From a virus (Duplodnaviria > Caudoviricetes): a stretch of DNA of 64,000 bases. The notes beneath the pieces were generated by a model. The model was not told the DNA's origin. It did not search any database and saw only the letters and a list, made by a program, of their open reading frames with translations. A program made the position numbers and the translations under genes. The stretch is from IMG/VR virus record IMGVR_UViG_3300010262_000138, positions 48,217 through 112,216 of that record. One strand, 5' to 3'. Of this stretch, positions 6,703-63,904 are shown one piece after another (within the stretch, counting starts at the first letter, position 1; each line of letters starts with the position of its first letter).

Positions 6703-6953
6703 CCTTTATACTCCATGTCACCATAGAGAGTAGACTATCTCTTCACCCCATAGGGTGCCCGGCGCTTCCACGCAGGAATTTCACCTGACATGTACTTCCT
6801 TTCGGAATAGTCGTTACACGTTCTCAAAAGAGCTTCGCACGGTATTGTCTCGGGAAGAGTTCTACCGTTAGCACAGCAAAGCTGCACACCCCGCAATTAC
6901 GGGTTCACCGGGTTTTCACCGCGCCGTTTCCGACGCGGGGGACTGCTTTATCA
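6703..6953 (-). ncRNA. Group I self-splicing intron (251 nt, no homing endonuclease) in the RNAP active-site codons
   Basis: Exon 1 ends in U; P1 GGAU^UG/CAGUCC with U.G wobble; Q AAUACCGUGCGAAGC; R GUAACGACUAU; S AAGAGAUAGUCU; terminal G; removal restores NGADKDGD in frame. Confidence 0.92.
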
Positions 6954-8600
6954 ATCCGCTCCATTCAATGCATGGCAGGTCATATCATGGCAGTTTAAAA
7001 GCGTAACTGTATTCATATACCGATACCAATAGTTTGCCTCATCAGACCTGTGTATCTTCATCTTCCTGATATTATTGTGATTGCTCATTGGGGCTCGGAA
7101 ACATACAACATCATCTGTCCCTTTATCGTGCCAATATCTGTTATATAGCTCCCCGGCTTTCAGCAGCCCTGTCACCGGTAATCCCCAAATGCTCTGGCAC
7201 AACGCAATTGGATCGCCGCATATTACAGAGAAGTTACCCTCTACCTTAACCTTCCCGAACTTCGACTCATTTACCCTCTTCTTAATCAGCGTCTTAATCT
7301 GATTGCGTACAAAGGGGTCTCCAAGCATCCTTCGGTCTGCCTGCAGAGCCGTAACCCAATCAAAATCTCCGCTGAATGCATTCTTCTCTGTAATACCAGT
7401 ACCCCGTAAAAAGAGAAGGGTACGGTAATAATCGTCACCCATTGCATCGCTGAGTTCGTGCAGGGTAGGGGAGACCAACTCATTTATCTCATCATCGCTA
7501 AGATCATAGCTCTGAATGAACTGATAATTAAGGCGCCGCTCTTTATCAAGCTCTCTCGAAGTCACTTTTGTAGCTGAAAAGGTATATCCATTTACACTGC
7601 AATTTTGCAGATAATCATCGATATTTGCGTAAGAATCCCATAATTTCAGCATAGAAGCAGTCAAAATCAGCTCAATTTCGTTGATTTTGTGCTTATTTCC
7701 CCAGATGTCTACCGCCGCATCCTTTTGTGCTATTGATGACGCAAATTCATGAAAATCAAATGTAAATGCCATACCTTTACAAAAACTATTGCGCAGACAA
7801 AGCCCAGACGGAAGATAGTCAAGCTGAAGCTCTTCCTGCCATCGCATAGCTAGGGCGGGGGACATCACTCCGTATCCATCGCTATCAATCAACTCTACGT
7901 CTCCGTTTTTGATAACTTCCATACTTGGTTCTCCGGTAGGTGAGTCCTTCAGAAGAATGTAATCCGAGTTGAAGTGAACAACGCAGTCGTCTACGACAAG
8001 AACCCCTTTTGGTATACTGAGAGGGGTTGATGCGGAACAAATCAAGGCGCGATATGCCTCTAGCTTCGCCGGCACAAACTCTTTATCCATGCGTCGCCCA
8101 TTGTCCGCTCGTCGCCGCAGTTCTTCTAAAAGTTCCGCTCCATTCCTTGTATACTCTGAAATAAATACAACGGTTGAGTTTTTTACGCCCCCGGTAGTCC
8201 CGACAAATCGTTGGTAGGTCATTCCATTGACCTTAAACCCTTTACACGCCCGGAGAAAATCCTTATTGGAATTACACACCAAGCAGATGTATTCCGGTAC
8301 GAATTGGATCTCATTCAATGCAGAATACAGCAATTTTATGCGGTTTTCCACCTCTTTTGAACGTTTTTCTCTCCGCAATTCACGTAATTCTGTGCGAATT
8401 TTCTCGAATTTATCCAGATTTTTATGAAGATCAATACCGGCTATCTGCTCGATCATACGGATACAGGTGCTTTCCGCGAGTGAAATCACAGCCCCGGACC
8501 TCTTGGCGTCGCGCAGCGAGATATTGTAATCCCAGTTGGACTTCCTCAATTCTTCGGTGGATAACTTCAAAACCTGCCTGAGATAAGAATACTGCTTTAT
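6954..8600 (-). CDS. YonO-like two-barrel RNA polymerase, exon 1
   Basis: SDGYG, R...KG and FRAP motifs; ends ...ALNGAD; probable ATA start at 8600 behind AAGGAGG (track start 8657). Confidence 0.88.
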
Positions 8601-8697
8601 GAAATCAGCCTCCTTTTTTGTGCATACAGTAATAGAAAATGAGAATAGACAACCCAAAACGATAATCTATTCGAAGTGGATTAAGAGTTCCCCAAAA

Positions 8698-23105: not shown

Positions 23106-23291
23106 ATGAACGATAGGTTCCCGAAAGATTGCTGGGATAAGAAGTGCCAGTATTTCCATGCATGGGACATGAGCGTTGATGACTTGTGTTGTGCTTGTGA
23201 TTTGCTGAAAACACAATGCGACGCTTGCGACGAAGATTATTCGCTTTTGAGGTGCCCACTGAAAACGGATATGCCGGGGGAGAAAGTATGA
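23106..23291 (+). CDS. Small Cys-rich protein
   Basis: Coupled ORF with RBS. Confidence 0.55.
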   Translation: MNDRFPKDCWDKKCQYFHAWDMSVDDLCCACDLLKTQCDACDEDYSLLRCPLKTDMPGEKV

Positions 23292-23590
23292 TTTGTGGAA
23301 GATGTGGTAAAGAGTTTAGACAATACCCACTCGCTCGTGCATCTTGGTATTGCGACGATTGTAGGAACGTATTGTTTAAGCCGAAGAAAAAGGTCATGAC
23401 CAACGCCGACCGCATCCGGGCCATGACCGACGAGGAATTAGCAGAACTATTCTACGCGATAGCTGATAAAAGAGAGTCGTGTTTAAAAATCTGCAACAAT
23501 CTTGACTGGTGCAGAAGAAATAATGCTCCGGAACCTATATGCCAGAATCACTATTTAGACTGGCTCCGCCAGCCAGCGAAGGAGGTTTGA
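23288..23590 (+). CDS. Zn-finger plus TNADRIRAM-type hypothetical protein (paralog of 35607-35900)
   Basis: 5' half nearly identical to the 35607 ORF. Confidence 0.75.
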   Translation: MICGRCGKEFRQYPLARASWYCDDCRNVLFKPKKKVMTNADRIRAMTDEELAELFYAIADKRESCLKICNNLDWCRRNNAPEPICQNHYLDWLRQPAKEV

Positions 23591-29601: not shown

Positions 29602-30450
29602 ATGCAAAGCACCGCTTTGGCTTTGCCGATAACGGAAAGTCCGCCGGAAATCCGGAGAAAAAAGCTCGTATATCCTTGGGAAGACGCCTTTGAAGCCGCT
29701 GAAGCGATGAAGGAAATCCAAAAAGGAGTAATGGCCTTCCGAAGCCTTTCGGATATTGATAAGGTGGTCTCCTATCTGCTGTCCACAGGCAATATGCGCA
29801 ACGTCTGCCTCTTTGTAATGGGCTGCAACTTCGGATTCCGTATCTCAGATCTGATGGAATTTACATGGCAGCGCGTATTGAACCACGATGGAAGCGTAAA
29901 GAAATCCACCTATAAAATTGAGAGAAAGAATCAGCACTCCCGTACCGTACATATCAATGATGCGGCAGGAACGGCGATTGGTCTTTACTATCAGAGCTTT
30001 TCAGAGCCTCCTGATCCGGAATGCGCCATGTTTTCCAGTCAGGGGAAGCGGAAGCGAAATTGCGTCCGCTCCGCAGAGGATGACGATGGAGTAATTCATA
30101 TGTGGACTGAGACGCAGCTAACGAAACAGATGGCTGCCAAGATCATCCGGGAGGCCGCAGACGCGGCGGGAGTTGTGCAGGAAGGGGACCGCTATTCTAC
30201 TCACAGCCTGCGTAAAACCTGCTTTACAGCGGCGGCGGGTTTGTATGAGGGGATCGAATTTCCCCATGATCCAACGAGCAACGCCCTGCGCTTTGCATTT
30301 GTCCAGAGCCTTGCGGGGCACAAAAATATGTCCACAACCATGAGATATTTGAACTTTGATGCGATTTTTACCGAAGAAACCTATATGGCGCTCAATCTGG
30401 GATTAACGCCGCTCCGAAAGTACGAGAAGCGCAATTCAAATATGGCATAA
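29602..30450 (+). CDS. Tyrosine recombinase family protein
   Basis: GFRISD (R), K, THSLRK, GH and Y catalytic residues all present. Confidence 0.9.
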   Translation: MQSTALALPITESPPEIRRKKLVYPWEDAFEAAEAMKEIQKGVMAFRSLSDIDKVVSYLLSTGNMRNVCLFVMGCNFGFRISDLMEFTWQRVLNHDGSVKKSTYKIERKNQHSRTVHINDAAGTAIGLYYQSFSEPPDPECAMFSSQGKRKRNCVRSAEDDDGVIHMWTETQLTKQMAAKIIREAADAAGVVQEGDRYSTHSLRKTCFTAAAGLYEGIEFPHDPTSNALRFAFVQSLAGHKNMSTTMRYLNFDAIFTEETYMALNLGLTPLRKYEKRNSNMA

Positions 30451-35465: not shown

Positions 35466-35606
35466 TGAACGCTCCATAATTGACAGTTGGAACGAAAAAG
35501 AGCAGAAACGTGAAAAAGCAAAAGAAGATAGGTATATTAAACAGCTTGAAAAATATAAAGCCGAAATAGAAAGACCGCTGAAAACGGCTATTCCGGGGGA
35601 GGAAGT

Positions 35607-35900
35607 ATGATTTGTGGAAGATGTGGTAAAGAGTTTAGACAAGACCCACTCGCTCGTGCATCTTGGTATTGCGACGATTGTATGAGCGAATTGTTTAAGC
35701 CAAAGAAAAAGATTATCACCAACGCCGACCGTATCCGGGCCATGAGCGACGAAGATCTAGCACGATTTCTCATTTGGAATGTTCCGAGTTGCGTTAATTT
35801 TTGCGACGATGCCCGTTGCGGATGCAAGTGGAATTGCAAGCATTGTGACGGCCTAACTGTTATTGCCGACTGGCTCCGTCAGACAGCGAAGGAGGTTTGA
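35607..35900 (+). CDS. Paralog of 23288-23590
   Basis: First ~80 bp nearly identical to the 23288 gene. Confidence 0.75.
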   Translation: MICGRCGKEFRQDPLARASWYCDDCMSELFKPKKKIITNADRIRAMSDEDLARFLIWNVPSCVNFCDDARCGCKWNCKHCDGLTVIADWLRQTAKEV

Positions 35901-36136
35901 CCATGATACCTTATAAGTGCCCTATCTGTGGAGGAAAAGGAATTGTCCCCGGAGGATTTTATATATCAGTTGGTTATACATGGTCAAGCAACTGTACTAC
36001 AGAGAAATGCAGACAATGCAACGGACAAGGCATTATTTGGTCGAATACTGCCGATATGGATAAGATCTCAGGATTAAATGTTGGATCAAATACATTGATC
36101 GCAGGAACCTATAATAATTCACATGAGGAGGTTTGA
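35897..36136 (+). CDS. DnaJ-type Zn-finger small protein
   Basis: CPICGGKG and CRQCNGQG motifs. Confidence 0.7.
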   Translation: MTMIPYKCPICGGKGIVPGGFYISVGYTWSSNCTTEKCRQCNGQGIIWSNTADMDKISGLNVGSNTLIAGTYNNSHEEV

Positions 36137-36732
36137 CCATGTACGAAGGTCTGATAGACAGCCTGCGCACTCATGTAGAGTGGGCACGTGCGAACGAATG
36201 GGAATCTCCGATTACGCTCGGGGATGATCTGGAAGAGGCAATCAATGCTATTGAAGCACTTACAAAAGACTTTGAATTTGTAGACGATATCAATCTGGGC
36301 AATGGTGTAACAATAGAAGAGCTTCAGGCAGAGGTTGATGCTCTACGCAAAATGCAGCCCGTCAATCTGGAGGAAGATGAAGCCAGATCGTTTGTGTTAG
36401 CCGCAGAACTATCAGAGGCAAGAACTAGGTTGGCAAAATCGGAGACCGAAAGAGATAGATTTGAGCAAATGTATCTGCAGTCTGAGGCCGATGCAATCAA
36501 TCTAACCGGAGAGTTGACCGAGGTTAGCGCCGAAAACGCCCGGCTCCGGCGGGAGAGAGATGCGGCGGTGCGCGATTTGAAAGAATGCGATATGAGAGAG
36601 CCGGGCGGCAGGTTTTGCAAGGATAAAGAAGAGTGTTATCAATATGTTCGTGAGCATGGTGGATTTTACCCTGAATGCGACGGATGCCCATTGTGGCAAT
36701 GGCGCGGACCGGCGGGAGATAGCAAATACTGA
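36133..36732 (+). CDS. Coiled-coil hypothetical protein
   Basis: ERDAAV.DL...WQWRGP phage motif. Confidence 0.75.
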   Translation: MTMYEGLIDSLRTHVEWARANEWESPITLGDDLEEAINAIEALTKDFEFVDDINLGNGVTIEELQAEVDALRKMQPVNLEEDEARSFVLAAELSEARTRLAKSETERDRFEQMYLQSEADAINLTGELTEVSAENARLRRERDAAVRDLKECDMREPGGRFCKDKEECYQYVREHGGFYPECDGCPLWQWRGPAGDSKY

Positions 36733-36738
36733 GCACGT

Positions 36739-36948
36739 CTAATATTTAACCATATCAGACTGAATCTTTCTGCTATGAGTAATAACTTCTACTTCTTTAT
36801 CGCTTTTACGAAACCATACGTGATATCCTTCTTGATGCTCTGCGTAATATTGAGATCCGCAGTAAAGATAGTTCTTTTGTCTTAGAAATTCTTTTAGAAG
36901 TAACCACTGATTATAATCTTCAACCGTTCGGGTTTTTGAGAAAACCAA
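36739..36948 (-). CDS. Small antisense-oriented hypothetical protein (moron-like)
   Basis: GAAGGTG RBS and TTG start (MVFSKTRTVEDY...); 3' part of track ORF 36739-37086. Confidence 0.6.
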   Translation of the reverse strand: MVFSKTRTVEDYNQWLLLKEFLRQKNYLYCGSQYYAEHQEGYHVWFRKSDKEVEVITHSRKIQSDMVKY

Positions 36949-37076
36949 TACATCACCTTCACAAATTGGTGCCGGCTTTTCATGTCCGGTTAAATGTCCA
37001 GTAAGGTCAAAGCGCTCAGAGTTTGCTGCGCTGCAGTGTAATGAGAAACGCCGAAAGAGGAAACAGCCAATCAACG

Positions 37077-37382
37077 GATAAAGCATGGCGTATTGAAAAT
37101 TAGGAGCGATGCCTTCACACCGCCCCTATTGCGACTAGCTCCCCAAAGAGAGCCAGATGGCCTTAATGACCTCGCAAATTATCCCGGCGATTACGCCGCA
37201 AATAATCTCCTTGGCTTCAGGACGCATCCGATACCTCCTAACGAGACCAAAAGTTTAGCCTCGAGCGGCCTTTCGCTCTCGTTTCTTCGATTAGGAGATA
37301 ACAATCGCAGTTACAGAATAGCATATCCAGAAAAGGTTTGCAATCTGTAGACGGGAAATAGTTCAATACGCCACGCTTTGTC
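37077..37382. other. Inverted-repeat-bounded antisense peptide cassette 1
   Basis: 21-bp IRs 37077-37097/37362-37382 (19/21) enclose a minus-strand promoter, leader, sORF and terminator. Confidence 0.75.
37135..37227 (-). CDS. 30-aa hydrophobic peptide, type I toxin-like (MRPEAKEIICGVIAGIICEVIKAIWLSLGS)
   Basis: AGGAGGT RBS; promoter TTGCAA-17-TATTCT (37343-37315); terminator hairpin 37101-37128. Confidence 0.75.
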   Translation of the reverse strand: MRPEAKEIICGVIAGIICEVIKAIWLSLGS

Positions 37383-37401
37383 TTAAATATTAGGAGGTAT
37401 T

Positions 37402-37701
37402 TTGATGGATGTAAAAATGCGTTTAGTATTAAATTATCTTGAAAGTCTTCAATATGATATTTGCGAGTCTATGATTGGACCGCAAAATTACAATAGAATT
37501 AACGGCGTGTCTCCTAAAGAGTTTGTGCAAAATCTTCTCTTCTTAAAGGAAGATGGATATATAGGGATAAATTTTTTGGGAAACCCGTCAGAAAATACAC
37601 ATTGCATAATCACAATGACCAAAAAGATGGCAGACGACAAATACTGTAGAGAACGTAATATTTTATACCTATTAAATAAATGGTTTAAGAAAGCCAAGTA
37701 A
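37402..37701 (+). CDS. Small wHTH-like protein, convergent paralog A
   Basis: AGGAGG RBS; aligns with 37672-37989. Confidence 0.7.
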   Translation: MMDVKMRLVLNYLESLQYDICESMIGPQNYNRINGVSPKEFVQNLLFLKEDGYIGINFLGNPSENTHCIITMTKKMADDKYCRERNILYLLNKWFKKAK

Positions 37702-37989
37702 CGATTTTGCCTTACTCCACAAGTCGTCTTGAAAATATGATTTAGCCCTAGGCTTTATTCTTACATAGCACGCATGTTCCGGAGATGGAACTCCTAAGAA
37801 TTGTACGGAAATATACCCCTCACTTTGAATATCAAGTAACTGCCTAATAAACTCGTCAGGAGAAATCCCGTCTATCGCGGAATAGCTTTTAGTGTTAAGC
37901 AACGTGTCATTCTGACTATCGTAATTAAGAGATAATAAGTATTTAAGCACACGTTTAAACTCTTTCTTATTCATTTTAACCACCATCAT
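37672..37989 (-). CDS. Small wHTH-like protein, convergent paralog B
   Basis: Aligns with 37402-37701. Confidence 0.7.
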   Translation of the reverse strand: MMVVKMNKKEFKRVLKYLLSLNYDSQNDTLLNTKSYSAIDGISPDEFIRQLLDIQSEGYISVQFLGVPSPEHACYVRIKPRAKSYFQDDLWSKAKSLLGFLKPFI

Positions 37990-38018
37990 CTATCATGTCA
38001 TAAAGGAGAGAAAATTCA

Positions 38019-38516
38019 ATGACTTACACATCAGCAAGTGCCCACAAACAAATCAAGCTATGGACAGAAGAGCGCGACGCTTTAATTCAAAAGGAGCGGG
38101 AAATCTGCTCGTATACCTATCAGGCGGGAGAGGAACCGGTAATTGAAAAATACGATTTTGTTAATACGCAATGCCGAATCGCGGAATATAACAACAAGAT
38201 TGCCGATCTAAGACACGCTGTTAATCTTTTCAATACAACAACGGTATTGCCCGGACTTGGCTTCACAATTGACGAAGCGCTTGTAAGAATGTCAATGCTT
38301 AACGATCAGAAAAACCGTCTCTCTCGTATGAAAGATATCAGAGAGAAAACGAGACAAACCAACTATAAAGGAATATCAGAATTTACAGAACGCAATTTTA
38401 ATATAGACGATTGTGAAGCTCTGTATCAGAAGGTTTGTAATGAGCTAATTCAAATTCAGCTTTCCATTGATAAGACAAATCTTACAGAACAGTTTGATGT
38501 TCCTGACGAAGATTAA
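38019..38516 (+). CDS. DIP1984/DUF6847-like helical protein
   Basis: I..L.HA.N.FN.TT...TIDEAL....L and ID..N motifs. Confidence 0.7.
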   Translation: MTYTSASAHKQIKLWTEERDALIQKEREICSYTYQAGEEPVIEKYDFVNTQCRIAEYNNKIADLRHAVNLFNTTTVLPGLGFTIDEALVRMSMLNDQKNRLSRMKDIREKTRQTNYKGISEFTERNFNIDDCEALYQKVCNELIQIQLSIDKTNLTEQFDVPDED

Positions 38517-39010
38517 CCATTGCCATTTGTGAAAATTGAAAAGGGTACGTCGCCGCACCCTTTCAGTCATCAATACCGCAGATGACGGAGCGTTTCCCTT
38601 ACGAACATATAGATCGTAAGTACATCAGCAAGTGCGCCGATCATGCGGAGCACATATAGCATCAGTTCGCCCACTGCATCACTGCCTTTCATATATATGC
38701 TGAAAGTACGGGACCCTCACTCTGAGCAAGTGAGTGTAGTCATATGAGCGGGTTGATGACGCCAAAATTATAATACAGTTTACACAAAACGGCAAGCCCT
38801 AATATCCGTCCATCCAGTCCACAACTAAACAAAAGAAAATTCTATCAAGTATCTGTAGACGTATCGTTGATGTTATAAGATTATTTTGTTATTTATTGTC
38901 TGTATGTGCATAAGATGAAGAAGTCTATAGAAGAAATTCTATTTTTAATATCATAATTGGATTGGTAAAAACTTAGGAAAGAGGTCTTTCCCCGGCAAAA
39001 GTAGATGGTT
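38515..39010 (+). ncRNA. Candidate ~500-nt structured ncRNA coupled to the DIP1984-like gene
   Basis: No ORF; ends pair (AACCAT/ATGGTT); tandem hairpin domain 38537-38760; long nested helix 38798-38977 enclosing a U-rich quasi-repeat loop. Confidence 0.6.
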
Positions 39011-39025
39011 ATATGCCGGATATCC

Positions 39026-39369
39026 TGTGCCGCAGCCGAATGATAGGCAGTCAGTTAGTTTGTAAAAGCAGAGTTAAAAAGAGGGCGTGATATTCACGCC
39101 CTGACGGTTAACGACCCCTCATAAGCACTCAGTTTAACAAGGCGCTATAGGTAGCGATCGTTATATTAACGCAGATATCCATGAGATCCATGCCAACACC
39201 TCCTGTATGTAAACTAAAATGAGAGGTTCTTCCCTTAATAACCTTAACACCTCAATTTAGTAACAAAAGGACCGCTACTTTATTATAGCAAATTATTCAA
39301 TTTATACAATAACAAAACTCTTACAAATTCAACTGATGTATGCTGGTTCGAGTCCAGCCGGCACAACCA
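39026..39369 (+). tRNA. Split tRNA gene with ~270-bp insert in the anticodon loop (anticodon ambiguous; TTC if 39057-39327 is removed)
   Basis: 5' half TGTGCCG-CA-GCC..GGC-A-GTCAG-TT (39026-39056); 3' half AA-CTGAT-GTAT-GCTGG-TTCGAGT-CCAGC-CGGCACA-ACCA; all stems pair. Confidence 0.8.
39129..39191 (-). CDS. 20-aa hydrophobic peptide MDLMDICVNITIATYSALLN (27 aa to 39108 if TGA is read through), type I toxin-like
   Basis: AGGAGGT RBS; promoter TTGTAT-16-TATAAT (39309-39282); terminator 39076-39102. Confidence 0.6.
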   Translation of the reverse strand: MDLMDICVNITIATYSALLN

Positions 39370-39449
39370 ACGGAGAATAGGTTGTCAGTTAGTCATCTCC
39401 GGACAAAAACGATTAAGACTGTCTGGCAGGCCGGAAAGACGGCCGATAT

Positions 39450-42934: not shown

Positions 42935-44889
42935 GATTTATCCTCGTAGACGCTAAAAGAATTGAAGAAGCAAAAGAGAAATTAGGCGATGAAAACTTTA
43001 CCTATATGATGCAGTTCCTCGGGATAGAAGATTACGACGCAACAAGAATGAAATGCTGTTGCCCGTTTCATAAAGAAGATACGGCATCTTTTATCTACAA
43101 TCCAAAAACGTATAAGGCTCATTGCTTTGGATGCAGCGTCAACGTTGATATCTTGGACGCATATATGAAAGGTAAGAATGGCACGTTCGGTGAGGCGGTC
43201 CAAAAGCTGTTTGAATTGGCGGATATCCCTTACAGTTTTGGAGAATACGGTGTAAAAACGAAACGGCAATATCGATATCCCAAAGTCGTGGAATGCTCTG
43301 ACAAAACACAGATTTACGATTACCTATTGAAACGTAAAATCAGCCCGTCTACCGCAGATTATCTTGATATTCGGCAGGACGAATACGGGAATTTAGCATT
43401 TCATTATTACGATCTCAACGATGTCTTGACGATGGTAAAGTACCGCCCGTCCCGAAAAATAGAAAAGGGAGAGAACAAAAACTGGTGTCAACAGGGTTCT
43501 GATACCACGCCGCTGCTTTTTAATATGAACAGAATTAACCCTTCTCAACCTTTGATTATTACCTGCGGGGAGCTGGATTGCGCATCTGTAATCGAGTCAG
43601 GTCTGACAAATTGCGTAAGCATTCCGCTCGGAGACGGGAATACGAAGTGGATAGAGGAATGCTGGGACTTTCTTGAACAGTTCAAAGAGATTATTGTCTG
43701 CCATGACAATGACAGTTCTGGGGTTAAATTTGTAAAAGAAGTAATCCCAAGACTCGGTTCTTGGCGTTGTAAGGTGGCGAATTGCCCTGACTTTGTTCTT
43801 ACAAAATCAGGCGAGAAGAGAGCGATTAAGGACATAAATGAGGTTTTATACTTTTATGGAAAAGAAAAAGTAGTCGATATCATTTTAAATTCCACCGACA
43901 GCCCGGTGCCATCTGTGCAGGATTTTTCAAATATCCCTGATAAGGAATTTTCCGATATGGAAGGGATTCGGACGGGGATAGAATCTTTGGATAAAGAAAT
44001 CATGTGCCTGCCATTCGGGAGCTTGACGATTGTTTCCGGAGCTCCGGGAGCCGGTAAAACCTCTCTCCTTTATGGATTGGTATGCCAAGCGCTGGAACAG
44101 GGTTCTAATGCATGGGTATTCTCTCGTGAGCTTCCCGACTACACTACAAAGGGCTGGATTAACTACATGCTGGCTGGGCCGCGCAATGTAAGCGAATACC
44201 ACAATTCTCAGGGCGCCAAATATTATAAGGTAAATCCCGAAGCAAAGAAAGCGATTTCTGCTTATTACAAAGGCCGTCTCTATGTGTACCGGGATGATTT
44301 CGGATGTAAAGCTCAAGAGATTTTTTCTTCCATGACTGATTCGGTGCGCAAATACGGCACGAGGTTTTTGTTGATCGACTCGCTGATGATGGTAGATCTG
44401 GAATCAAACGAGAATAACAAGTTTGAAAAGCAGACCGAGTTTATCAACCAGTTAATCCAGTTCGCGCTGAGATATAATGTGGCAATCGTATTGGTTTGCC
44501 ATCCCAGAAAGCTGCAGTTTGGGCAAAGTGAAGTTGGAATGTACGATATTGCCGGCAGCTCTAACCTCAGCAACCTGAGCCATCGGGCAATCGGCTTGCG
44601 AAGGGTTGGCAAAAAGGAGCGAATGGGGGAGAGAAACGCCAGGGATACGGGCTGGATTATTCCGCCCTGCCAATACCATTGTATGCTGAATATTATCAAA
44701 GATCGTTTCCGGGGAAGAGCTGGTGCGGAATTCGGCTTATATTACGATGAGGCCAGCCGAAGGTTCTTTTCCAATCCTTCAGAGTATGACTTCAAATATT
44801 CTTGGGATCAAAACATTTATCAGGACGAGCTTACATACCCGATTGTAGATATGGAAGAAGAGGTTTTAGGGACAATCAGGGAGGGATGA
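42931..44889 (+). CDS. Primase-helicase fusion (CHC2 Zn finger, TOPRIM, DnaB-like)
   Basis: CCPFH..HCFGC, GELD, DND, GAPGAGKT and IDSLM motifs. Confidence 0.92.
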   Translation: MRFILVDAKRIEEAKEKLGDENFTYMMQFLGIEDYDATRMKCCCPFHKEDTASFIYNPKTYKAHCFGCSVNVDILDAYMKGKNGTFGEAVQKLFELADIPYSFGEYGVKTKRQYRYPKVVECSDKTQIYDYLLKRKISPSTADYLDIRQDEYGNLAFHYYDLNDVLTMVKYRPSRKIEKGENKNWCQQGSDTTPLLFNMNRINPSQPLIITCGELDCASVIESGLTNCVSIPLGDGNTKWIEECWDFLEQFKEIIVCHDNDSSGVKFVKEVIPRLGSWRCKVANCPDFVLTKSGEKRAIKDINEVLYFYGKEKVVDIILNSTDSPVPSVQDFSNIPDKEFSDMEGIRTGIESLDKEIMCLPFGSLTIVSGAPGAGKTSLLYGLVCQALEQGSNAWVFSRELPDYTTKGWINYMLAGPRNVSEYHNSQGAKYYKVNPEAKKAISAYYKGRLYVYRDDFGCKAQEIFSSMTDSVRKYGTRFLLIDSLMMVDLESNENNKFEKQTEFINQLIQFALRYNVAIVLVCHPRKLQFGQSEVGMYDIAGSSNLSNLSHRAIGLRRVGKKERMGERNARDTGWIIPPCQYHCMLNIIKDRFRGRAGAEFGLYYDEASRRFFSNPSEYDFKYSWDQNIYQDELTYPIVDMEEEVLGTIREG

Positions 44890-47067
44890 ACATTCCAAAT
44901 TATGTCGCATATCACGTCCATACAGATCATTCTCTGCTCGACAGCGCGACCAAATATCAGCAGTACATTGAAGAAGCCGTAAAGAACGAGCAGAGCGCAA
45001 TTGCTTTTACGGAACATGGCAATCTCTACAATTGGATTGCAAAAAAGAAGGCTTGCGAAGCATCCGGGTTAAAATATATCCATGGAGTCGAGTGTTACCT
45101 GACTGAAAAACTCTTCCCAAAGGAGAGGGATAACTACCATACAATTCTTCTGGCAAAGGACGCCAACGGGGTTGAAGAAATTAACTCACTCGTCAGCCGC
45201 TCCGAGACGGAAGATCACAAATACTATAAGCCGCGCATTTCGTTTGATGAGTTTCTTGGGATTAGCGACCATGTTATTAAAATCAGCGCCTGCCTTGCGT
45301 CTCCGTTGAATCGGCTTGACATCAGCAATCCGTATTATGAAAAACTGGCGCAGCACTACGATTATTTTGAAATACAGCCACATAATCACCCCGATCAAAT
45401 CAGGTTCAACATTCACCTCGCAGAGCTGTCCCGTAAACATCACAAACCTTTGATTGCGGGAACCGATACGCACAGCTTGAATCAGTATAAAGCAGAATGC
45501 CGAAGTATCCTTCAGTCCGCAAAGCATATTGAGTTCAGCGACGAAGACGCATTTGACTTAACCTATAAATCCTACGATGAGTTATGTGAGATGTTCCGTA
45601 TTCAAAATGCGATTCCGGAAAATATCTGGAAAGAAGCGATTGAGAATACAAACCGTATGGCCGACAGCGTAGAGAAGTTTGAGCTTGATGAAACCTTTAA
45701 ATATCCGCATCTATATGGAGAACGGGACTCTGAAATTTACGACAGTAACCTGTGGAACAGTTTTCAGAAAAAGATTGACGAAAATATCATTCCGCAGGGA
45801 GAAGCAGAGCGGTACAGAGAGCAGCTTGAAGAAGAAACCAGAGTATTCGACAAGCTCGGAATGAAGGGCTTCATGCTGTCCATGTCCGAGTTTGTGAGGT
45901 GGTGTAAGGGAAATAATATCCCGGTTGGTCCGGGAAGAGGCTCTGTTGCTGGAAGCCGGGTTGCATACGTCACCGATATTACCGACGTTGATCCCGCCCG
46001 ATGGGGAACGGTATTTTCCCGGTTCTGCAACGAAGACAGGCGAGAAATTGGCGATATTGATATTGACCTTGCGCCGGATGATCGGGAGCTTCTTTATAAC
46101 TATATCATCGGCCGATTTGGAGAACAGTACACAGCCTACATTTTGGCGCTAGGCACAATCAGCTCTAAGGGGACTATAGATGAAATTGGACGGGCTTTAG
46201 ACCTGAGATGGAAAAAACAGCATAAGGACGATGAAAGGTCGCCCTACACTCTTGATGCTGTAGCGGGAATAAAGAAAGTATTTGAGGCGGGTCCTGATAA
46301 AGCCAGAACTTTATTCCCAGATTTATTTTACTACTATGACGGTCTGATTGACACAATCATTTCACAATCGATGCATCCGGCGGGCATTGTGGTAAGTCCC
46401 GTAACCCTTCCTGACCATTATGGAACGTTTGTCAGAGAAGGAAAGACGATACTGCAAATTGATATGGACTGCGTACATGAGGTCAGCCTTGTCAAGTATG
46501 ACATTCTGGGGTTGAAAAACATCCAGATACTCAAAGATGCCTATGAGCTGGCTGGAATTCCATATCCAAGGATGCACGAGATTGACTGGAATGACGAGGC
46601 GGTTTGGGAAGATATCAAAAGGTCGCCGGTAGGCATATTCCAATTTGAGTCAGATTATTCGCATTCCATGCTCAGACAGTATAATCCCAAATCCATTTAT
46701 GATATGTCGTTGGTGACGGCGGCAATCCGCCCCTCCGGGTCTTCATACCGCGATGAGCTGATGAAGCACATACCGCATAAGAACCCGTCCCCAATTATTG
46801 ATAATCTACTCGCCGATAATAACGGATATTTGATTTATCAAGAGGATACAATTAAGTTTCTTCAGCAGATATGCGGATTGTCAGGAAGCGCCGCCGATAA
46901 TGTCAGAAGGGCCATCGGCCGGAAACAAGAAGACAGAATTAACGCCGCGTTGCCGCTAATCTTAGAAGGTTATTGCAGTAAATCCCCTAAGCCGCGAGAA
47001 GAGGCAGAAGCGGAAGCAAAAGAATTTCTTCAGATTATAGAAGATTCAAGCAACTACCAATTTGGGT
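44886..47067 (+). CDS. dnaE: DNA polymerase III alpha, exon 1
   Basis: HVHTDHSLLD PHP domain, GPGRGSVAGS, DIDID, HPAG and KYDILGL motifs. Confidence 0.93.
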
Positions 47068-47339
47068 GAATGGTTTGCCCATCCTTGTGAATACGGTCAA
47101 CTAAACCGAGAGGTTAAGGTGGTAAGAGAGCCTAAGTCCTTATATTGGATATGGTAATACCGTGCCAAGCCCTAAACAGGGAAGGTGTAACGACTATCGA
47201 AAGCACACGAGCCTCAGAAATGATACACGTGGAAGCAAGTAGAGTAGGCCGCAAGGCCGAAGCGCAAGGGGAGAATTGTGCGGTCACAGCGCTGTTCTCC
47301 AAGATATAGTCTGTACCATTCGAAAGAATGGATTTAGCG
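47068..47339 (+). ncRNA. Group I self-splicing intron (272 nt, no homing endonuclease) in dnaE
   Basis: Exon ends in U; P1 UGGGU/GCCCA with U.G wobble; R GUGUAACGACUAU 47185-97; S AAGAUAUAGUCU 47301-12; terminal G; removal gives YQFGYNHSIAY. Confidence 0.92.
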
Positions 47340-48289
47340 ATAATCATTCCATTGCCTACTGCATGATCGGATATCAATGCGCCTTCTTACGCTATTATCA
47401 TCCCTATGAATTCGTCACAGCATATCTCAACAACGCCGCAAACTACGACGATATCAGAAACGGCAGTGATTTGGCGCAGGAATATGGGATTCGAATCAGC
47501 GCTCCCAAGTTTGGTCTTTCAAAAGATACCTACATATTTGACCGGGAGCAAAACGTAATTGCAAAAGGCGTCGCGTCTATCAAGTACCTGAACACCACAG
47601 TCGCAAATGAGCTGTATGAGTTAAGCAAAGAAGTTGACTATACCTATTTTACCGACCTGTTGCTTGACCTGATGCAGAAAACCAGCATTGACTCACGGCA
47701 GCTTGATCTTTTGATTAAAATAGACTTCTTTGACCGGTTCGGAAATGTACCAACGCTGAGTAAAATCAGGGGCGTTTTTGATTTCTTAAAACAGGGGAGC
47801 GCTAAAACAATCAAAAAGGAAAAGCTGGAAAATCATCCGCTTAAAGAGTTGATACCGGCGTTTGCAACAGACAGAAACGCAAAGGGCGCGGAGTTAAAGT
47901 CCTATACAATCCAGGATATGACCGGATTGCTCCACGCAGCCGAGGAAGAAATCAAGTCCTGTCAATTTCCCGATCTTGATTTGAAGGTAAGGCTGTCCAA
48001 TCAGCTTGACATCTTGGGTTATGCAGATCTTACAACGAACCAGATAGAAGATCGCCGCAAACTGCTGATTACCGATATTGTACCATTAAAGAATAAACAG
48101 GGAACGAAACCATGGGCGTATGCGGTTTTTACCCGCTCTGTTGGTACTGGCAAAACCGCGAGGTTAACATTACGTTCGAGAATCTATGATCGCCGTCCGA
48201 TTAAAAAGCTGGATGTAATCTACGCACATGCCCTTAAAAAAGAAGAAAGCGGATATTGGTATCTCTACGATTATGATCTGGTGATTTGA
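47340..48289 (+). CDS. dnaE: DNA polymerase III alpha, exon 2
   Basis: NHSIAY...AFLRYYHPYEF and G..SIK motifs. Confidence 0.9.
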
Positions 48290-62233: not shown

Positions 62234-62314
62234 TATGGTTGGAGTTTGTGGTATAATGAGAGCTACAGATTTCGCGCCGTTGCAAAGGCCGTACCAGATA
62301 GGGAGGTGCGCCTA

Positions 62315-63904
62315 ATGCCAATGGTAGATTGCTATGTCCGCCTGTCCGATGAAGACAGAGATAAGAGCAATGTCTTTGATGCCAGCGAGAGCATAAAGAA
62401 TCAGAAGTCGATGCTGATCAGTTACTGCATGGAAAGGGGATGGCAGATCCACAAAGTATATTGTGATGAAGATTATTCCGGGGCGGATAAAAACCGCCCC
62501 GGTTGGCTTCAAATGATTGAAGACTGCGAGAACGGCGTTGTTGATACGGTGGTCTGTAAAGCGCAGTCAAGATTCAGCCGGGATATGGAAATGGTCGAAA
62601 AGTACATTAACGGGAAGTTTGTCGAGTGGGGAGTCAGATTTATTGCGATTCTGGATAACATTGATACCAATGTCGCCGGAAACAAAAAGGCGAGACAGAT
62701 CAATGGCCTTATCAATGAATGGTATCTTGATGACCTTTCAGAGAATATCAAATATGTACTGACCCATAAAAAGAAAAACGGGAAGTGGACGGGTTCTTTT
62801 GTCCCATATGGTTATATTACCGATCCAAAGGATAAAAACCATATGCTGATAGACCCCGTAGCAAGCCAGATTGTCAAAGAAATCTTCCAGATGTTTGCAG
62901 ACGGTAAGGGATACGTGGCGATTGCCAAAGAGCTGAATGAGCGCAGCGTCCCAAACCCCACCCGATACAAAAGAATGAATGGGAGCAATTTCAAAACAAA
63001 AGAGAATCGTGTGACTTCCTCAATCTGGACAGAATCGACCATCTACTATATCATTCGCCAAGAAATCTATTTGGGCAGACTTGTTCAAGGAAAAACGCAA
63101 AATATCAGCTATAAAACCAAAAAGCGCCGCTTCGTCCCAAAGAAAGACTGGATACGATGTGAAAATACACATGAGGCAATTATCTCGCAGGATCTTTGGA
63201 ACCGAGTACATTCAAGGCTAAGGGTGAAATCCCGATCTACCTTTGCAGACATTGATTCTTGTGGAGAGCGTCATATCTTCAGCGGCAAAGTATTCTGTGC
63301 GGAGTGCGGCAATCGCATGTATAAGCTGAGTTCAAAGGGAGGGAGAGGAACACATCGTTATAAGTATTTGAGATGTGCCACCCGTAAAAACTCAGAGAGC
63401 GAATGCACGAACAGTAAGTTTATCCGATTTGACTTCCTTGAGCAAAAAGTTTTAAGTGAGATTAACGCCTTGATAGACAGGTATTATAATCCCGATCTCA
63501 TCACAATTCCTGAAAGAGAAAGTAAAACCGAGAAAAGAATAAAATCGTTAACGACCGAAAAGACAAAACTTACAAATGAAATTGCGTCTGTCAAAAACGC
63601 ATCTGCCAACCTTTACCGGGATCGCATAAAAGGGTTGATTGATGATGACCAGTTTGCGATGCTCAACGATGAGTTCTGGACTCAGGTTAAATCTCTGCAA
63701 GGTCGCCTAGACTCCATCGCAGTAGAGATAGAAGACTTAGACATTTCAAGCAATCTCGCTGTATCCAAAGATGAAATTATATCGAAATATGAGCACATTT
63801 CTTGCCTCACCCATGCCATTGTTGATGAGTTTATCTCGGCAATATATATTGGAAATGTTACCGAAAATGGGCAGAGGGAGATCGAAATTGAGTGGAATTT
63901 TTAG
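62315..63904 (+). CDS. Large serine recombinase (phage integrase)
   Basis: YVRLS catalytic motif, SRFSR, recombinase domain, Zn ribbon CAECG and coiled coil; GGGAGG RBS before ATG at 62315. Confidence 0.95.
   Translation: MPMVDCYVRLSDEDRDKSNVFDASESIKNQKSMLISYCMERGWQIHKVYCDEDYSGADKNRPGWLQMIEDCENGVVDTVVCKAQSRFSRDMEMVEKYINGKFVEWGVRFIAILDNIDTNVAGNKKARQINGLINEWYLDDLSENIKYVLTHKKKNGKWTGSFVPYGYITDPKDKNHMLIDPVASQIVKEIFQMFADGKGYVAIAKELNERSVPNPTRYKRMNGSNFKTKENRVTSSIWTESTIYYIIRQEIYLGRLVQGKTQNISYKTKKRRFVPKKDWIRCENTHEAIISQDLWNRVHSRLRVKSRSTFADIDSCGERHIFSGKVFCAECGNRMYKLSSKGGRGTHRYKYLRCATRKNSESECTNSKFIRFDFLEQKVLSEINALIDRYYNPDLITIPERESKTEKRIKSLTTEKTKLTNEIASVKNASANLYRDRIKGLIDDDQFAMLNDEFWTQVKSLQGRLDSIAVEIEDLDISSNLAVSKDEIISKYEHISCLTHAIVDEFISAIYIGNVTENGQREIEIEWNF

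Follow-up and report, generated by a model that had tools for sequence, protein, structure and literature searches.

A minus-strand cassette in a large SPbeta-like gut phage as a candidate moron for a translationally locked, type I toxin-like peptide

The 306-bp segment considered here, at 37077-37382 of the DNA that we analyzed, faces against the operon of its phage, is bounded by inverted repeats (IRs) and seems to hold a complete transcription unit for a peptide of 30 residues. The analyzed stretch, hereinafter the window, is 64 kb in length and corresponds to bases 48217-112216 of a 112-kb IMG/VR virus record, which is estimated to be 67% complete. Its source is a large SPbeta-like gut phage. 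Searches with Pfam recovered a eukaryote-type RdRP hit at 6951-8657 (E=2.2e-10), which is consistent with a YonO-type phage RNA polymerase, and further hits in the window to Sak, SSB, a primase-helicase, Pol III alpha, ThyX, NrdD and a cytosine methylase. Pfam also identified a tyrosine recombinase (29602-30450) and a large serine recombinase (62246-63904), which lie 7 kb and 25 kb from the cassette, respectively. From ~13.6 kb onward nearly all genes are oriented rightward, and the genes flanking the cassette lie on the strand opposite to it. Gut metagenomes of pigs and cattle contain near-identical DNA, in runs that come from 9 studies. The sole tRNA recovered by a tRNA search, with or without the intron search, is Ile(TAT). 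We also observed, inside the leftward gene block of the window, a 194-aa ORF of the Zeta-toxin family (892-1476; Pfam E=2.6e-09). Pol III alpha appears as two ORFs, of which 44802-47069 (755 aa) has the PHP, NTPase and finger domains and 47276-48289 (337 aa) has HHH_6; these are separated by ~200 nt and could reflect an intron, an intein remnant or a true split.

The original prediction placed a minus-strand promoter, TTGCAA-17-TATTCT, inside the IRs, and we recovered it there along with a preceding TG that makes it an extended -10 promoter (Table 1). It matches the consensus at 8/12 positions and is therefore not listed by a stricter scan (>=9/12). The terminator that had been proposed for the same transcript is likewise present, its 12-bp stem being followed by AUUUUC, and the proposed occlusion of the ribosome-binding site (RBS) by the leader is borne out as a predicted structure, in which an anti-Shine-Dalgarno (anti-SD) stretch at 37291-37300 pairs with the Shine-Dalgarno (SD) region at 37232-37241.

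Table 1. Positions in the window of the features of the cassette and of its immediate surroundings
Feature	Position	Strand	Remarks
Right IR arm	37362..37382	none	outer end is the exact homology breakpoint versus short-form sister phages (37382->38017)
-35-like hexamer TTGCAA	37343-37338	minus	CTGCAA in sister contig L004
Extended -10 TGcTATTCT	37315..37323	minus	TATTCT at 37320-37315; TGn and TATTCT kept in L004 despite changed flanking bases
Predicted RNA 5' end	37302..37309	minus	8-bp closing helix with 37130-37137, including the UAG stop; start inferred from sequence
Anti-SD UAUCUCCUA	37292..37300	minus	paired with 37232-37240
Leader hairpin between anti-SD and SD	37241..37282	minus	predicted fold
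Shine-Dalgarno GGAGG	37234..37238	minus	spaced 6 nt from the ATG; unchanged in every variant seen
30-aa ORF	37135..37227 (stop included)	minus	residues 7-14 and 15-22 form a tandem 8-residue repeat
Intrinsic terminator	37093..37128	minus	12-bp stem 37128-37101, including 3 G-U pairs, then AUUUUCAAU; -19.4 kcal/mol
Left IR arm	37077..37097	none	shares bases with the terminator tail and with the start codon (ATG, 37086-37084) of the 115-aa ORF
115-aa ORF	36739..37086	minus	downstream of the peptide ORF; without SD; same frame as the peptide, with two TAG codons between (37137-37135, 37128-37126)
634-bp block	37383..38016	none	two convergent paralogous ORFs; abuts the right IR arm; 32-nt filler in sister phages

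Folding of the minus-strand RNA from 37310 to 37090 (221 nt) yielded -97.8 kcal/mol (z=-6.7), and none of 200 shuffled sequences folded as well. The plus-strand RNA of the same segment reached -54.7 kcal/mol (z=-1.19), while the minus-strand segments adjoining the cassette gave z-scores of +0.58 and -2.31. The asymmetry between the strands arises because 15 of the 80 predicted pairs are G-U; being strand-specific, the fold is thus a property of the minus-strand RNA rather than of a DNA palindrome. In this predicted fold the helix between 37309-37302 and 37137-37130 is followed by that between 37300-37292 and 37240-37232, by the pairing of CGGAUG with 37159-37154 and then by the terminator. The AUG, as part of the CGGAUG, has codons 23-25 as its partner, and paired regions are predicted to hide the stop codon as well as the GGAGG and the AUG; the same fold is predicted for two diverged versions of the cassette described below (the sister contig L004 and a variant from run X14). 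A contig from an RNA library (run X15) spans 36609-36918, a stretch outside the cassette.

The small hydrophobic minus-strand ORF at the center of the cassette is present as described in the original prediction. The encoded peptide has a charged N-terminus followed by a hydrophobic stretch at residues 8-28, with a mean Kyte-Doolittle value of 2.2, and in its small size and hydrophobicity resembles type I toxins, which are hydrophobic or membrane-helix ORFs of less than ~60 aa. Its codon-usage score of 0.251 (versus 0.243 +/- 0.109 for real genes) is the highest among the six frames. Short minus-strand ORFs with a GGAGG-ATG start are rare to the right of 13.6 kb, where there are three, at 37227, 39191 and 46725. 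Profile searches of Pfam and NCBIfam with the peptide recovered nothing at E up to 0.01 and, at E up to 10, only transmembrane segments of Syndecan and Sec61beta (E >0.1); none of the known type I toxin families in these databases (Fst, TxpA/BsrG, Hok, Ldr, Ibs and others) gave a significant match. Likewise, PHROGs and PADLOC yielded either no family or transmembrane-like noise at E ~0.1 or more, and the leads from the Atlas, namely DUF6408 (0.84), Fst (0.79) and Ldr (0.79), are weak, all falling under the lead level of 0.9. Of the proposal that this is a type I toxin-like peptide, its hydrophobic nature, its predicted RBS sequestration and its own terminator are retained, but neither a toxin family match nor an antitoxin promoter was found.

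On the antitoxin side, a scan of 36000-38261 found no plus-strand promoter with a match of at least 9/12, and a relaxed scan of the plus strand between 36600 and 37450 recovered only weak 8/12 sites, at 36889 (TTCTTT-17-TATAAT) and at 37402; therefore no antitoxin gene was identified. A weak plus-strand terminator-like site at 37263-37278 coincides with the inner part of the leader hairpin, and its tail loses a T in the sister contig L004. Read-through of the operon could be a source of antisense RNA, and a fold prediction for such a plus-strand transcript has the two IR arms pairing into a stem that encloses the cassette in full.

To place the cassette in an evolutionary context we collected its relatives, which proved to be close ones only, from pig and cattle gut phage DNA. 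An exhaustive protein search with the 30-aa peptide gave a single match (P0001), and searches of GenBank phages with DNA and peptide queries gave none. Degenerate back-translated patterns recovered from the viral contigs only the sister contig L004 and from the genome contigs nothing, while a scan of metagenome contigs with a degenerate pattern recovered L067, which is the same DNA as L004. A search with the 165-aa neighbor as query again led to the sister contig only. Neither the cassette, nor the peptide, nor the small ORFs that neighbor it were found at 59 loci with the N-terminal domain of the 199-aa neighbor or at 79 further loci with the HD-domain neighbor.

The sister contig L004 is identical to the window over 35593-37261, whereas 11 of its 14 substitutions fall within 37262-37377, pointing to a recombination step inside the cassette at ~37262; its homology to the window stops exactly at 37382, with the filler in place of the block that follows. 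The same short-form joint, with two slightly different fillers, is also seen in a 53.8-kb contig of run X13 (depth 153) and in two contigs of run X14, while a 16-kb contig of run X3 has the form found in the window. Within the cassette, L004 preserves the SD and the ORF, along with the extended -10; its anti-SD acquires a central C>A mismatch, and two of three changes at paired sites maintain the pair through G-U or A-U. The second version, a 397-nt contig from run X14 (depth 8.2), corresponds to 37055-37374, from which it differs by 15 substitutions and the loss of 1 nt, and beyond its left breakpoint at 37055, which lies 22 nt outside the IR arm, it has a different flank. Its promoter and leader are unchanged, and its terminator is weakened from -19.4 to -12.0 kcal/mol. 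All four listed coding changes are nonsynonymous (codons 2, 3, 5 and 6), and the last codon is frameshifted; when the listed differences are applied to the window, the resulting translation equals the first 50 residues of P0002. This 57-aa protein, known from 16 contigs, shifts frame at codon 30, and P0001 (51 aa, 2 contigs) does so at codon 23; both read through the terminator, and their mRNAs would thus be devoid of a stop codon if the terminator works. When L004 and the X14 variant are considered together, 4/9 changes at paired sites keep the pair, with 0 double compensatory changes. The window, L004, P0001, P0002 and P0007, a longer protein discussed below, share the SD, the ATG and residues 7-22 without any change. 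Separately, a 188-bp stretch of the window (23256-23443) is 91% identical to a place in L004 whose counterpart in the window is at 34-36 kb, and is either a dispersed repeat or a shared gene fragment.

The 21-nt IR arms, 19/21 complementary, are where the original prediction had placed them. No other IR of at least 19/21 with a gap of 50-600 nt occurs in the whole window, and 0 were obtained in 40 first-order Markov simulations. It also holds that the arms lie outside the predicted promoter and terminator and therefore cannot pair inside the predicted RNA. In L004 the outer part of the IR has decayed, the complementarity falling to 17/21 through changes in the right arm, with no compensating change in the left one. 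The additional 11-bp IR (36739-36749 with 37383-37393) that had been said to bracket the cassette together with the neighboring gene does exist, but it is not above chance expectation: perfect 11-bp IRs whose arms are 50-1000 nt apart occur 41 times in the window (versus 18.8 +/- 6.3 in simulations), and the right arm of this additional IR is inside the 634-bp block that is absent from the sister phages. We set aside as a signal a 17-nt direct repeat, D2, which is at chance level and whose right copy is likewise inside this variable block. In sum, the 21-bp IR is a real feature, whose right arm ends at a module boundary used in inter-phage recombination. The relatives break from the window at 37055, ~37262 and 37382; the unit defined by the IR is therefore not in every case exchanged as a whole.

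The reading that we prefer, with a probability of roughly 0.45, is that the cassette is a phage moron encoding a translationally locked type I toxin-like peptide. As is typical of morons, an accessory ORF within a phage gene block is surrounded by a promoter and a terminator of its own, both recognized as sequence motifs, and its presence and context are variable: the left flank differs from 37055 in X14, the right flank varies at 37382, and the cassette is absent from the 59 and 79 more distant related loci. It would thereby be a self-contained minus-strand unit facing against the rightward operon of the phage, whose extended -10 promoter TTGCAA-17-TGcTATTCT would give rise to a ~220-nt RNA ending at the strong intrinsic terminator and encoding a 30-residue, single-helix membrane peptide. 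In this RNA the GGAGG would be held by the upstream anti-SD, the AUG by codons 23-25 and the 5' end by the region of the stop codon; with the start signals and the ends paired, translation of the full-length mRNA is therefore expected to be blocked unless refolding or processing intervenes. Transcription of the phage in the rightward direction would generate an RNA perfectly complementary to the cassette mRNA. Type I toxin mRNAs, among them bsrG and yonT of SPbeta, have this kind of design. We infer from these signals that the cassette is transcribed and the peptide translated, and that the peptide may be toxic and the cassette subject to antisense control. A more elaborate version, which we regard as very improbable, is a toxin module that dispenses with an antitoxin gene: the IR arms would pair in the operon transcript, and an RNase III-type duplex would release a full-length antisense RNA, coupling silencing to lytic transcription, such that the toxin would act only when the operon is silent; in a variant of this scheme, IR-driven inversion would switch the peptide gene between sense and antisense relative to the operon.

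Downstream of the peptide on the same strand is the 115-aa ORF, which has no family match and belongs to one 90%-identity cluster of 7 near-identical members with no other relatives. One additional observation is an AGGTGAT-like SD located 7 nt before an in-frame TTG at codon 47 of this ORF, from which a shorter product of 69 aa could be made. One member of the cluster, P0007 (162 aa, from a single 1.6-kb contig), consists of the peptide, a 17-residue linker and the 115-aa ORF in frame, and its protein record has Q at both positions that are TAG in the window; the peptide and the 115-aa ORF thus share a frame, as this continuous fusion entails. The AlphaFold model of P0007 has a mean pLDDT of 44.9, too poor for a fold search, and the Atlas yielded no usable match with P0007 as query. 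We considered and rejected recoding of TAG to Q as the cause of the fusion, the code being the standard one: TAG is the stop of 13/78 long ORFs, which argues against its recoding; coverage by open stretches (>=100 codons) is 0.874 under code 11, and reading TAG as Q raises it no more than do other changes of stop codons; and no suppressor tRNA was found in the tRNA search with and without introns. P0007 could represent a continuous gene that is now broken in the window, or else a read-through or alternative-code gene call.

These observations bear on an alternative that we deem unlikely, though it is a serious rival and carries more weight than the other alternatives, namely that the peptide forms the N-terminus, as a membrane anchor or signal segment, of a gene of ~162 codons, broken by two TAGs in the window and by frameshifts or truncation elsewhere, with the cassette being the 5' part of a decaying gene. 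It would account for the uninterrupted P0007 and for the common frame, and also for the lack of an SD before the 115-aa ORF, which is separated by the terminator from any promoter. Moreover, 7/7 cluster members show next to no variation over residues 20-85 of the 115-aa ORF, as expected of a real domain, and the codon score of this ORF (0.126) exceeds the 95th percentile of wrong frames (0.093). However, the fused form is confined to one of the seven members, on one contig, and no further fused representative emerged when residues 1-47 of P0007 served as the query; its Qs could be TAGs read as Q by an alternative-code gene caller on a 1.6-kb contig, and the linker scores as non-coding (-0.136, albeit over only 16 codons). 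Nor would one expect inside an ordinary gene a terminator with a 12-bp stem together with an RNA domain that closes precisely at the stop codon with a z of -6.7, and neutral decay does not predict that all three independent disruptions should fall in codons 23-34 of 162. Finally, the P0002 lineage (16 contigs) lacks the 115-aa part and yet has a promoter, leader and SD identical to those of the window. Less probable than the decaying gene is an ordinary small phage membrane protein gene (e.g. one that acts in exclusion, lysis timing or host modulation) whose leader is structured, and which is neither a toxin nor antisense-controlled. The evidence for a small hydrophobic ORF serves it as well as it does the toxin-like moron, and the missing antitoxin promoter and toxin family match are in its favor; nevertheless, locking the SD, the AUG and both ends into one domain, in full antisense overlap with an operon, would seem, judged by resemblance, more elaborate than most small-protein genes need.

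The exceptional and strand-specific structure might alternatively be that of a non-coding structured phage small RNA in which the 30-codon ORF is incidental, a reading that would fit both the unconserved end of the ORF, with two frameshift variants reading through the terminator, and the purely nonsynonymous changes in codons 2-6. We consider it more doubtful than an ordinary membrane protein gene, given that the consensus GGAGG with its 6-nt spacing to the ATG is fully conserved, the codon usage is gene-like in the ORF's own frame and the ORF specifies a clean hydrophobic helix, while Rfam has no family matching the cassette at its gathering thresholds or at E up to 10. The most improbable of all the readings is that the 306-bp IR-bounded segment is a DNA-level element, i.e. 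an inverton or a MITE-like mobile cassette. The highly non-random IR, the promoter enclosed by it, the two recombinases of the phage, the exact breakpoint at the outer end of the right arm and the other left flank in X14 are all features that such an element might display. Against it, a strand-changing joint, as would be produced by inversion, was seen in none of 4 runs (at the level of contigs, which drop rare forms), no target-site duplication is visible at the IR ends, and no empty hairpin site (arm cores within 30 nt of each other) was found among the viral contigs. The 112-kb record has no second copy of the cassette, and outside it the two degenerate scans of viral contigs and the one of metagenome contigs turned up one other contig only, and the scan of genome contigs none; thus, of the hallmarks of MITEs, the terminal IRs are present, whereas the duplication is absent and the copies amount to one in the record and one on another contig in the collections. 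Further, the left breakpoint in X14 is beyond the arm, the recombination step of L004 is within the cassette, and the IR itself decays in L004. The 13-nt core motif of the arms, which we also tried as a repeated operator, is not supported in that role, having 3 other hits with 2 mismatches compared to 1-6 in shuffled sequences.

The moron with a locked, toxin-like peptide may be compared with several known systems. Toxin mRNAs of the par/Fst and hok/sok types are compact, have upstream sequences that occlude the SD and pair their 5' end with the 3' region, the full-length mRNA being inert. The predicted cassette mRNA shares this compact, SD-occluded and 5'-3' paired organization, but the peptide has no Pfam match to Fst or Hok, its Atlas scores for Fst and Ldr (0.79) are below 0.9, and a partner resembling Sok or RNA II did not turn up. 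Phage morons and the mobile promoter-stem-loop cassettes of the T4 type bring their own promoter and terminator into a phage operon region. The present cassette also has its own promoter and terminator, with flanks that differ between related phages, and is set apart from them by its antisense orientation relative to the operon, its translationally locked leader (as predicted) and its 21-bp IR bracket. Correia-type or MITE-like elements and fimS-type invertons are short promoter-bearing segments between terminal IRs, and upon read-through their arms would form an RNase III-type duplex. The cassette shares with them a ~300-bp promoter-bearing segment between terminal IRs; unlike them, it is single-copy and without a target duplication, and its inverted or empty form was not seen.

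The prophages of B. subtilis are reported to carry type I systems, in which the SD is sequestered in the bsrG mRNA and RNase III cleaves the toxin-antitoxin RNA duplexes (PMC6562991). The Bacillus prophage modules (bsrG/SR4 and yonT-yoyJ/SR6 on SPbeta, and txpA/RatA on skin) resemble the cassette in that they feature an SPbeta-like phage, a short hydrophobic ORF, a sequestered SD and an arrangement convergent to another RNA, and yonT, like the cassette, has a downstream ORF on the same strand (PMC6562991, PMC5848175). The Bacillus modules are not known to be IR-bounded, in contrast to the cassette. It further differs from them in that the scans recovered no promoter-bearing gene for an antitoxin RNA, and the peptide shows no sequence similarity to their toxins.

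As a candidate the cassette is well formed but unsurprising: type I toxins are familiar components of prophages, and the evidence points to no new principle. If the peptide is toxic, it would define a new and so far orphan toxin family of large SPbeta-like phages of livestock gut Firmicutes, and its mRNA would be a compact example of one in which a single closed fold conceals the stop codon along with the SD and the AUG. The IR, with its base-exact breakpoint at the outer end, further illustrates how small regulatory cassettes mark the seams of module exchange between phages.

Several further units are found in the immediate vicinity. The two ORFs of the adjacent 634-bp block overlap each other (a plus-strand one of 99 aa and a minus-strand one of 105 aa), are 34% identical (E=4e-19) and have no family match; this block is replaced at the same base-exact joint in three assemblies. 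Farther to the right, a 189-bp block (38578-38766) that is absent from L004 carries a minus-strand ORF for a hydrophobic protein of 40 aa (38570-38692). At 39026-39372 there is a tRNA-like gene that is apparently interrupted by ~270 nt; of the 1,575 combinations of cuts by which this insert was removed in silico, 44 gave an ARAGORN tRNA that begins at 39026 and whose anticodon varies with the cut. The insert, which could be a plus-strand intron or an inserted cassette, has a minus-strand ORF of 20 aa with a GGAGG-ATG start, and a terminator. The original prediction held that the cassette has the same architecture as the one in this split tRNA; the two do have in common a short minus-strand GGAGG-ATG ORF and a terminator, but the bounding IR in the tRNA-like gene is only 10 nt in length, with 90% identity. 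Three antisense mini-units are thus located within 2.6 kb, namely the cassette studied here, the block with the 40-aa ORF and the unit at 39060-39300.
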